NCBI GenBank assembly: GCA_005882335.1
Contig: VBAP01000009.1
Span: 48,303-112,302 of the forward strand
Length of the DNA: 64,000 nt
DNA from: Candidatus Segetimicrobium genomatis
GTDB lineage: Bacteria > Sysuimicrobiota > Sysuimicrobiia > Sysuimicrobiales > Kaftiobacteriaceae
Direction of reading: 5' to 3'
Shown here: positions 59,955 through 61,154 of the stretch, in pieces
Layout of the letters: the number at the start of each line of letters is the position of its first letter
Numbering within the stretch: the stretch's first letter is position 1
Notes under the pieces: generated by a model
Seen by the model: the letters and a program-made list of their open reading frames with translations, nothing else
The model's database searches: none
Told to the model about the DNA's origin: nothing
Position numbers and translations under genes: made by a program

Positions 59955-60130
59955 GGGACCGCTGACCCCCTCACCCTTGCGTCCCTCTCCCCGCGGGGAG
60001 AGGGAAATAAGGTTGGGGCCTCGGGCCCCTCATGTGTCCGTTCGCTTCTTACAAACAGGAGTCTCCTCTGACCCCTCACCCTTGCGTCCCTCTCCCCACG
60101 GGGAGAGGGAAATAGGGTTGGGGCCTCCGG
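59955..60130. repeat. two tandem copies of the REP-like element
   Basis: ccctcacccttgcgtccctctccccgcggggagagggaaataaggttggggcctcgggcccctcat (59962-60027) and a near-identical copy (60075-60140) with 4 differences. The stop of the substrate-binding gene lies in the second copy. Confidence 0.8.
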
Positions 60131-60134
60131 CCCC

Positions 60135-61154
60135 TCATCTATATGGGCGGCTGGCCTGAGCACCCCCCCGCTTGGCCAGATCGTTGCGCGTCCCGGGGCG
60201 GCTGATGGCCGTCTTCTGGCGCGGCCCGAAATAGCGATCGTACACTTCCCCGTAGTTACCGATGAGGCGGAGCACGCGCTGGATCGCGCCGCTTTTCAAC
60301 TCCACGAGGTTCTTCGCGTTCGGATCCTTGCCGGTCAGCTCCGCCAGTTGGGCGGGATCGCGGGCCACCGTCTGCGTGATCCCGAGTTCCTCGGCCAGGA
60401 TCATGCCCCAGACCGTCCAGTTGACGACATCGGCCCATTTCGAGTCGTTCTCCTGATACATCGGGGCCAGCGGCTCGTCGCTGAACTCCTTGCCCACGAT
60501 CTTGAAATCCGCCGGATTCGGCGCCGTAGATCGGAACGCGGTGAGCTGGCTGGCATCGGTAGTGAAGACATCGCACCGTCCCGCAGCCAGTCCGTCAAAC
60601 GCCTGCTTGGCTTCGGCAAACGTGATCTGCTGGAACCGGAAGTTGCGCAGGCGCATCTGATCTGTGATGTTTCGTTCGCTCGTTGTCCCGGTGAATACGC
60701 AGATGCGCGCGCCGTTGAGATCGTCCAATCCGCTGATCCGCGAGTCTGCGCGGACCAGGAGGCGCTGGCCATCGTAGAACGTGACCGGACCGAAGTCCAC
60801 CTGGTCGTCGCGGGTGACCGTCTGCGTCGTCGTGCGGAAGACCACGTCCACCGAACCGGAGACCACCGCCGGGATGCGGCTGGCCGAGGTGAGGTTGACG
60901 AACTCCACGTCCGGCACATCGAGGAATGCGGCGACCGCCCAGCAGAAGTCAGCGTCGAATCCGACCATCCGGCCGGAAACCGGATCTGGGAAGGAAAAGC
61001 CCGGCGTCGTGCCGGAGACCCCGCAGACCAGTTTTCCACGCGCGCGCACGGTGTCCACACGGCTGCGCGGCTGCGCCAGCACCGCATACGAAACGGTGGC
61101 GACGGTCAATGCTACCGCCAGCGCGTAGGCGACGAGTTTGCGCAACATCCTCAC
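60135..61154 (-). CDS. amino acid ABC transporter substrate-binding protein (AapJ-like)
   Basis: Signal peptide MRMLRKLVAYALAVALTVATVSYAVLA, then a type-II periplasmic binding fold. Confidence 0.8.
   Translation of the reverse strand: MRMLRKLVAYALAVALTVATVSYAVLAQPRSRVDTVRARGKLVCGVSGTTPGFSFPDPVSGRMVGFDADFCWAVAAFLDVPDVEFVNLTSASRIPAVVSGSVDVVFRTTTQTVTRDDQVDFGPVTFYDGQRLLVRADSRISGLDDLNGARICVFTGTTSERNITDQMRLRNFRFQQITFAEAKQAFDGLAAGRCDVFTTDASQLTAFRSTAPNPADFKIVGKEFSDEPLAPMYQENDSKWADVVNWTVWGMILAEELGITQTVARDPAQLAELTGKDPNAKNLVELKSGAIQRVLRLIGNYGEVYDRYFGPRQKTAISRPGTRNDLAKRGGAQASRPYR

Follow-up and report, generated by a model that had tools for sequence, protein, structure and literature searches.

Which kind of repeat lies, in two tandem copies, between the binding-protein gene and the permease genes of an amino-acid ATP-binding cassette (ABC) transporter in Candidatus Segetimicrobium genomatis, and what might it do there? 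This uncultured soil bacterium belongs to the phylum Sysuimicrobiota (formerly CSP1-3), and the question was addressed in a stretch of 64,000 nucleotides (nt) of its DNA (the window). Proteins encoded in the window are identical to those of metagenome-assembled genomes named Bacillati bacterium ANGP1 / Candidatus Segetimicrobium genomatis. A preliminary description of the same DNA had listed five copies of a REP/BIME-like element, at 14385, 49310, 59962, 60075 and 61286. Judged by its sequence, the element belongs to the BoxC/PIT/TMECO class of intrastrand triplex motifs, of which it is a composite form specific to this lineage. To our knowledge, repeats of this class were recognised about 30 years ago, and neither a function nor a mode of spread has gained acceptance since. 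BoxC/PIT elements of Escherichia coli and other Proteobacteria were reportedly the subject of work by Bachellier and Hofnung in the 1990s and by Hoyne and Maher in 2000.

A family profile was built from 46 distinct composite copies and used to search the window. It returned exactly five copies (E 3.9e-21 to 2.7e-6) and one doubtful relic, and the positions and consensus given in the preliminary description proved essentially correct. Four exact matches to the core CCCTCTCCC-N4-GGGAGAGGG are present in the window (49330, 59983, 60088 and 61300), where dinucleotide-preserving shuffles predict 0.01, and a repeat finder aligned units of 67 nt at 49314, 59967 and 60072 as well as an inverted unit at 61270-61336. 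The two copies next to the binding-protein gene, termed copy A and copy B, form a direct tandem with a period of 105 nt; their high identity, previously put at about 94%, was measured as 96% over 67 nt. All five copies are intergenic, as had been claimed, and lie between minus-strand genes. The gene calls were made with our own codon log-odds caller, which was trained on the window and recovered the Pfam-confirmed genes.

In the orientation of the preliminary description, which is C-rich, the unit reads (CTCTGA)CCCCCTCACCC, 2-6 nt, CCCTCTCCC, N4, GGGAGAGGG, RRANNN, GRTTG, a second hairpin and CTCAC; the G-rich, triplex-capable and mRNA-sense strand is the opposite one. On that strand the unit of about 75 nt runs from hairpin 2 through AAYCNYAUUYC, hairpin 1 (CCCTCTCCC-N4-GGGAGAGGG) and a loop of 2-6 nt to GGGTGAGGGGG and UCAGAG, and the usual order in the mRNA is stop codon, hairpin 2, hairpin 1 and GGGUGAGGGGG. 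The loops of hairpin 1 are CGCG, CACG and TCCA, in agreement with the preliminary description, to which two features are added here, namely hairpin 2 and the part of CCCTCACCC as third block of the triplex motif. Hairpin 2 is a GC stem of six base pairs (bp) whose sequence varies while its pairing is kept: copies A and B have GGGGCC-TCG-GGCCCC and the two remaining full copies GGGCGC-TGCC-GCGCCC, with one C-A mismatch in the copy about 45 nt upstream of glyQ (hairpin 2 at 49362-49377). Folding as single strands is predicted for both hairpins, whichever strand is taken, and together they reach about -19 to -20 kcal/mol (DNA parameters). The inverted copy (61264-61340) reads, in its G-rich sense, CCCTCTCCC-TGGA-GGGAGAGGG-ATCAAA-GGGTGAGGGGG, its third block giving 9 of 9 allowed triads. 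The degenerate copy (14383-14442) retains a 3-bp remnant of hairpin 2 (14434-14442), and in the relic (12821-12868) the CTCTGA left flank and GAGGTT...CACCCCTAC are recognisable and the triplex core is missing.

The assignment to the class was made by comparison with the published TMECO pattern, 5'-CCCTCNCCC N3-6 GGGNGAGGG N3 GGGNGAGGG, for which the earlier names are BoxC and PIT (Holder et al., 2015; PMC4666352). This pattern occurs 3610 times in 262 proteobacterial genomes, its sites in E. coli K-12 are always intergenic and show no strand bias, and no transposase or integrase was found near the sites (PMC4666352). Oligonucleotides with 3-nt loops form a stable class II purine-motif triplex in vitro, identified as a triplex and not a G-quadruplex by nuclear magnetic resonance (NMR) (PMC4666352). 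In our data, all five copies carry the CCCTCNCCC, GGGNGAGGG and GGGNGAGGG blocks on the strand opposite to that described before, and in all of them GGGTGAGGG gives 9 of 9 allowed triads against GGGAGAGGG (G·G:C, A·A:T and T·A:T of the antiparallel purine motif). Loop 1 is 4 nt long in four copies and 3 nt in the degenerate copy, all within the published range of 3-6 nt. Loop 2 comprises 4 nt in the copy at 49310, 6 nt in those at 59962, 60075 and 61286, and 3 nt (GAA) in the degenerate copy only, with 2-6 nt in the family; four copies thus deviate from the strict TMECO loop 2 of exactly 3 nt and agree with the looser ITxF definition (loops of 1-6 nt). The degenerate copy, whose minus strand reads CCCTCGCCC-GTG-GGGAGAGGG-GAA-GGGTGAGGG, conforms to the published TMECO pattern even in its strict form. 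An E. coli consensus was reconstructed from the control oligonucleotide of Holder et al.; it was present in 5414 of 5426 complete E. coli genomes at a median of 18 places per genome, and an example inside the flg operon, between flgF and flgG, lacks a second hairpin. A blastn search of the tandem region against E. coli genomes returned nothing useful.

The pairing of hairpin 2 was assessed in the alignment of the same 46 copies. Changes on both sides were found in five of the six pairs (38 cells), and the covariation score of 0.147 was reached by none of 500 shuffles and compares with 0.006-0.044 in slid controls; the selection step of the alignment favoured sequences with some stem after GRTTG, yet nearly all family-like sequences have such a stem. 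The stem variants include GGCGC/GCGCC, GGCCC/GGGCC, GGCAC/GTGCC, GGTGC/GCACC and GGGTC/GACCC as well as AGGCC/GGCCT, AAGCC/GGCTT, ACGCC/GGCGT and GCGCC/GGCGC. Hairpin 1 is invariant in this alignment by construction, since it was the search pattern, and an outer helix CCCTCACCC/GGTTG proposed by RNAalifold consists of three pairs that never vary and speaks neither for nor against pairing. In the Rfam search of the whole window only a tRNA reached the gathering score, and permissive E-values for 59900-61400 yielded sub-threshold noise from microRNA and small-RNA models.

The third block was analysed in all perfect pyrimidine/purine hairpins of the window and of the fetched loci, of which 293 distinct ones with a purine arm that is not mirror-symmetric were kept. 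For these asymmetric hairpins the mirror rule, which is the triplex rule (G to G, A to A or T), can be told apart from a direct copy, which would reflect an alternative hairpin or simple duplication. Across phyla, the third block was a perfect mirror and an imperfect direct copy in 64 cases, whereas the reverse was true in 4; with two or more mismatches on the losing side the ratio was 25 to 2. Examples of the mirror rule are GGGAGAAGG followed by GGATGAGGG, GGGAAGGGGG followed by GGGGGATGGG, and AGGGGGAGG followed by GGAGGGGGT. Such a mirror relation is not produced by ordinary replication errors and is not needed by hairpins or G-quadruplexes. This outcome supports selection on triplex-forming ability across lineages. 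An alternative hairpin of the C arm with the third block was considered as the reason for the conservation of the latter and was rejected, because the direct-repeat rule loses by 4 to 64.

A scan of species representatives with the pattern CCCTCACCC-N2-7-CCCTCTCCC-N4-GGGAGAGGG yielded at least 119 stretches and located the three-block core in more than ten phyla. The hosts comprise Alpha-, Beta-, Gamma- and Deltaproteobacteria, Chloroflexota, Planctomycetota, Verrucomicrobiota, Gemmatimonadota, Elusimicrobiota, Methylomirabilota, Rokubacteria, Melainabacteria and others. The sequence past GGGAGAGGG differs by lineage, and among the species-representative matches listed the full composite was found only in the ANGP1/Segetimicrobium representative (L045; L-numbers denote the fetched loci and contigs that were compared with the window). 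A metagenome scan gave 117 stretches, mostly from soil, and at least 38 distinct composite sites were located in soil metagenome contigs of the same lineage, so that further copies do exist. Close inverted doublets of the core, resembling REPINs, were seen in L009, L032, L033, L038, L039, L041, L052, L079, L084 and L122, with Methylobacterium, Variovorax, Rokubacteria and others as hosts, and are also reported for E. coli. The Segetimicrobium copies seen were singles and direct tandems only, including the tandems in L155, L174 and L210. The three-block core is also carried, in either phage DNA or flanking host DNA, by 48 viral or proviral contigs from IMG/VR (L250-L297).

The composite sites showed a marked relation to the flanking genes. 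In 17 cases both neighbours are antisense to the C-rich orientation and in 4 cases both are sense (two-sided binomial, 0.007); divergent and convergent flanking genes were found at 5 and 3 sites, respectively. At 11 of 21 distinct sites (12 of 22 with the degenerate copy) no more than 3 nt separate the end of hairpin 2 from the upstream stop codon. Where the flanking genes are co-directional and both were called, 7 of 10 sites adjoin the stop codon (3 nt or less) compared with 1.7 expected under uniform placement (P about 5e-6). The next start codon often follows 12-45 nt past the element, which places such copies inside operons. Stops next to copies are TGA, TAG and TAA in 4, 5 and 3 cases, against 22, 20 and 11 in the background of the window. 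An insertion target of the TA type had been suspected from the adjoining TAG and TAA stops and was rejected, because stop usage matches the background proportions. The placement at gene 3' ends in the preliminary description holds for copy B, which overlaps the stop codon of the binding-protein gene, and for the degenerate copy, which adjoins the stop codon 14443-14445. It is weaker for the remaining three: the inverted copy lies about 8-12 nt past the DgkA stop but in the orientation opposite to that of the other copies, copy A lies behind copy B, and the copy at 49310 lies past a terminator, upstream of glyQ.

The junction between the binding-protein and permease genes was compared among relatives. 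Near-identical strains carry either two copies, as the window and L004 do, or one copy. The single copies are chimeras that combine the left flank of copy A with the interior of copy B (L001, L002) or copy A with the right flank of copy B (L003, L005), which fits recurrent deletion between direct repeats; assembly collapse could conceivably also have produced the one-copy alleles. A longer mobile unit including the tandem spacer of 33-38 nt was rejected, because the spacer is unique to this site. In L243, whose binding protein is 88% identical, both sites are empty: the spacer between DgkA and the binding-protein gene measures 63 nt, and that between the binding-protein and permease genes is 31 nt long and unstructured (z +0.8). 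In L244 (86%) a composite copy directly follows the TAA stop; the public record is N-masked within the repeat region (about 11060-11170), and the copy number is unreadable there. L245, L246 and L247 (80, 76 and 70%) do not carry the element, and each has a different strong GC-rich hairpin instead (z -5.4, -4.8 and -3.4), while the spacers of the window reach z -4.3 and -4.1. The recurrence of stable structure with unrelated sequences argues for a role at the RNA level at this junction.

We give about even chances to the reading that the element, as a composite of the BoxC class, is a non-autonomous dispersed repeat which works at the level of the mRNA, as a module of hairpins near stop codons. 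The unit would have multiplied in Candidatus Segetimicrobium as a small non-autonomous repeat, presumably moved by an agent acting in trans, and would have been gained or lost at individual intergenic sites. Most copies would be transcribed within operon-like rows of genes, with hairpin 2 placed 0-3 nt past the upstream stop codon. To judge from this position, two stable hairpins could block 3'-to-5' decay of the mRNA, hinder the polymerase or the terminating ribosome by slowing or partly halting it, or do both. In this way the binding-protein cistron, which lies upstream, might be uncoupled in its expression from the permeases, as with the REP at malE-malF. The G-rich strand, when single-stranded, could also fold into a purine-motif triplex, and this capacity, conserved across phyla, is the probable basis on which the class spreads or is locally unstable.

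Several observations weigh against this reading. One is the lack of promoter and terminator activity, and of any in vivo effect on polymerases, reported for the PIT/BoxC elements of E. coli (PMC4666352). Across phyla, the bare core has no preferred orientation (36 vs 34), in agreement with Holder et al., and a role in RNA could therefore hold for the composite only. The GC skew of the window is negative throughout and nearly all genes lie on the minus strand; the directions of transcription and replication are thus confounded in the window, and the orientation bias could reflect insertion into single-stranded DNA. The closest relative, L243, manages with its unstructured spacer of 31 nt, which indicates that the hairpin is dispensable. 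The copy upstream of glyQ follows a canonical terminator, where a barrier in the mRNA has no obvious use. Finally, the gene calls stem from our own codon-based caller, and some orthologous sites were possibly counted twice.

A purely DNA-level explanation is possible, although we regard it as rather unlikely. On this view an intrastrand-triplex (H-DNA-like) repeat, selfish or neutral, spreads via single-stranded DNA on the lagging-strand template and causes local instability, the RNA hairpins being unselected and the proximity to stop codons reflecting tolerated insertion. The dominance of the mirror rule (64 to 4 across phyla) is what such a repeat would be expected to show, and the same applies to the triplex formed by the E. 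coli motif in vitro, to the unusual variability of TMECO loci between strains (PMC4666352), to the polymorphism of one versus two copies with chimeric single copies, and to the empty sites in L243. Moreover, the G-rich strand corresponds to the lagging-strand template, as deduced from GC skew, in four of the five window copies. However, this explanation does not account for the compensatory changes that preserve hairpin 2, a part outside the triplex, for the spacing of 0-3 nt to all three kinds of stop codon or for the unrelated hairpins at the same junction in relatives. In addition, no stable triplex was seen in E. coli by in vivo footprinting (PMC4666352), and loop 2 measures 4-6 nt here whereas the in vitro triplex is known for 3-nt loops only.

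The occurrence of the core across more than ten phyla with lineage-specific flanks, together with the mirror symmetry, could mean that a triplex forms in vivo and is recognised by a widespread trans-acting factor, such as a structure-specific nuclease, a transposase or a replication or repair protein, which copies or maintains the repeats. In Segetimicrobium, a further adaptation would have turned the element into an RNA module adjoining stop codons. We consider this proposal doubtful.

An intrinsic (factor-independent) terminator, or a terminator duplicated in tandem, is improbable. Many copies lie just past stop codons, hairpin 2 is followed in the mRNA sense by a moderately U-rich tract (AACCUUAUUUCCC), and a lenient consensus scan flagged two copies as terminator-like; but the U tract is weak and none follows hairpin 1, and with the next start codon 12-45 nt away many copies leave no room for a promoter. 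The orientation is opposite in one of the five window copies and in about one fifth of the family. A canonical intrinsic terminator with a stem and a run of six T residues occurs on the minus strand at 49395-49425, beside the copy upstream of glyQ, and indicates that the organism uses ordinary terminators. In E. coli, PIT/BoxC elements show neither promoter nor terminator activity and no in vivo effect on polymerases (PMC4666352).

Very improbable, too, is the original proposal of a classical REP/BIME family mobilised by a RAYT transposase. It was correct in that the element belongs to a dispersed family of intergenic hairpin repeats, short, GC-rich, palindromic and multi-copy, and the core does occur in other lineages as REPIN-like inverted doublets (L041, L033, L038 and others). 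The features that define REPs are missing: neither the family consensus nor any invariant column contains a GTAG/CGTC head, the only CTAC among the copies (in 14383-14442) being the neighbouring stop codon, and copies A and B are arranged as direct repeats, not as an inverted doublet or part of a mosaic. A tblastn search with E. coli RayT of the window and 1.9 Mb of fetched loci gave nothing below E = 1 (best E 1.2), no Y1 or other transposase was recognised by Pfam among the 56 predicted genes of the window, and the absence of transposases and integrases near TMECO sites (Holder et al., PMC4666352) points in the same direction.

Least probable of all is a G-quadruplex (G4) in which GGG-AGA-GGG-loop-GGG-TGA-GGG would fold in DNA or mRNA and compete with hairpin 1 as a switch: a canonical G4 motif is present on the G-rich strand of every copy and 6 of the 9 motifs in the window (shuffles 15.6 +/- 4.1) fall into the five copies, but a G4 needs G tracts only and does not predict the mirror relation of purine arm and third block, the NMR data on the E. 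coli motif identified a triplex instead (PMC4666352), and a GC hairpin of 9-10 bp ties up the first two G tracts.

The coordinates of the copies and of accompanying features are compiled in Table 1. The window also contains intergenic "ladder" arrays of 9-nt units (GTCTNCCCN / GACNGGGAA, AGTTGGANA, GGGAACNCG), often arranged as inverted half-arrays. A GGGAACGCG ladder comes immediately after the composite in L045, L155, L174 and L210, and in the window the copy upstream of glyQ and the possible relic lie within about 30-70 nt of ladders. Two of the nine G4 motifs of the window are located in a ladder array, and their total is lower than in shuffled sequence. At the transporter locus, the permease gene has a 19-bp deletion at about 59686 relative to the otherwise 98% identical L001 and is split into open reading frames at 59685-59942 and 58966-59688; it may represent a pseudogene, a strain variant or an assembly error. 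A short palindrome, GTCGTAACGTTTCAACGAC, is found upstream of the binding-protein gene (about 61228-61246, minus strand); its CGTCGTA core is conserved upstream of this gene in the repeat-free relatives L243, L245 and L246, and it may be a promoter or operator element. The tRNA gene found with Rfam (24846-24916, 64.8 bits) is overlapped at its 3' end by an inverted repeat, I12 (24903-24975; 34 nt, 5-nt gap), which may be a terminator or an attachment-site-like feature.

Table 1. Positions of the element copies, their parts and accompanying features (in the window unless a fetched locus is named).
Feature	Position	Strand	Remark
Copy A of tandem pair	59962-60036	+	Profile E 2.8e-16; G-rich mRNA-sense strand is minus
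Copy A, third block CCCTCACCC (GGGTGAGGG on minus)	59968-59976	+	Purine-motif rule 9/9 against GGGAGAGGG (rule per PMC4666352)
Copy A, hairpin 1, CCCTCTCCC-CGCG-GGGAGAGGG	59983-60004	+	
Copy A, hairpin 2, GGGGCC-TCG-GGCCCC	60015-60029	+	Helix covaries in family
Spacer between copies A and B	60037-60069	.	Found only in window and L004
Copy B of tandem pair	60070-60143	+	Profile E 2.9e-16
Copy B, third block	60073-60081	+	
Copy B, hairpin 1	60088-60109	+	
Copy B, hairpin 2	60120-60134	+	
TGA stop of binding-protein gene	60135-60137	-	Is the terminal TCA of copy B; L243 (empty site) has AGA TAG
Amino-acid ABC transporter substrate-binding protein gene (SBP_bac_3)	60135-61154	-	Pfam E 5.2e-19; element copies on both sides
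Permease gene downstream of tandem pair	58966-59942	-	Frameshifted in window
Inverted copy, between DgkA stop and binding-protein gene	61264-61340	-	Profile E 3.9e-21
Inverted copy, third block	61328-61336	-	
Inverted copy, hairpin 1	61300-61321	-	
Inverted copy, hairpin 2	61274-61289	-	
Copy between minus-strand terminator (49395-49425) and glyQ start	49313-49387	+	Profile E 2.1e-20
Degenerate copy	14383-14442 (profile match 14383-14437)	+	Profile E 2.7e-6; GGGCGAGGG replaces GGGAGAGGG
Possible relic copy	12821-12868	+	Low confidence; weak profile match, E 0.15
Ladder arrays, window	12898-13050, 37855-37951, 40673-40772, 49440-49480, 49895-49961, 54308-54480		
Ladder arrays, L045	2233-2275, 2393-2413		
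Unrelated junction hairpin, L245	11015-11144		
Unrelated junction hairpin, L246	11015-11098		
Unrelated junction hairpin, L247	11018-11095		

The lineage offers three testable handles that have no equivalent in E. coli, namely the orientation bias, the tight spacing to stop codons and the covarying hairpin 2. The junction provides a natural comparison, as it is empty in one relative, some relatives carry this element there and still others have unrelated hairpins. The comparison of mirror and direct rules constitutes evidence, drawn from sequences only, for selection on triplex-forming ability across phyla. For annotation it follows that these repeats of Sysuimicrobiota should neither be labelled REP/RAYT nor be read as small open reading frames.

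Compared with known systems, the element shares with REP/BIME (PU) sequences of enterobacteria and pseudomonads the short GC-rich palindromes, the intergenic and often intra-operonic location and, in particular, the position between binding-protein and permease genes of ABC transporters, for which malE-malF and hisJ-hisQ are the classical enterobacterial sites. REPs stabilise upstream mRNA and stall ribosomes if located within 15 nt of the stop codon, according to the work of Liang, Rudd and Deutscher (2015) as summarised in PMC12306157. The sequence of the present element is unrelated to that of REPs; it lacks the GTAG/CGTC head, inverted doublets and mosaic clusters, no RAYT was found in the window or the fetched loci, and its mirror-symmetric third block has no REP counterpart. 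Like miniature inverted-repeat transposable elements (MITEs) and ERIC, Correia/NEMIS and RUP repeats, it is small (75 nt), dispersed, intergenic, composed of stem-loops and presumably co-transcribed with flanking genes, and its presence or absence varies between relatives. Unlike MITEs, however, it has no terminal inverted repeats, its ends sharing a direct CCCTCA. Classification as a MITE was rejected for this reason and because no clean target-site duplication was found at the two filled sites that are empty in L243.

The closest correspondence is with BoxC/PIT/TMECO. Both have three 9-mer blocks, CCCTC(N)CCC, GGGAGAGGG and GGGTGAGGG, with a loop 1 of 3-4 nt and a third block that obeys the antiparallel purine-motif rule; both are strictly intergenic, multi-copy, found in both orientations and without a known associated transposase, and their copy number differs between close strains. 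The degenerate copy even shows the common "mismatch" form of the C arm known from E. coli, CCCTCGCCC. In contrast to TMECO, loop 2 is not 3 nt long but has 4-6 nt in four copies of the window and 2-6 nt across the family, and the core is fused to a covarying hairpin 2, a conserved GRTTG and the flanks CTCTGA ... CCCTCAC. Whereas the E. coli elements are unbiased, the copies described here show a marked orientation bias and a tendency to adjoin stop codons, they occur as singles or direct tandems instead of inverted doublets, and their host belongs to the Sysuimicrobiota and not to the Proteobacteria. The kind of element (BoxC/PIT/TMECO) is thus a known one; what is new is its composite form, found in an uncultured phylum and placed with a regularity that has no parallel among the E. 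coli elements.

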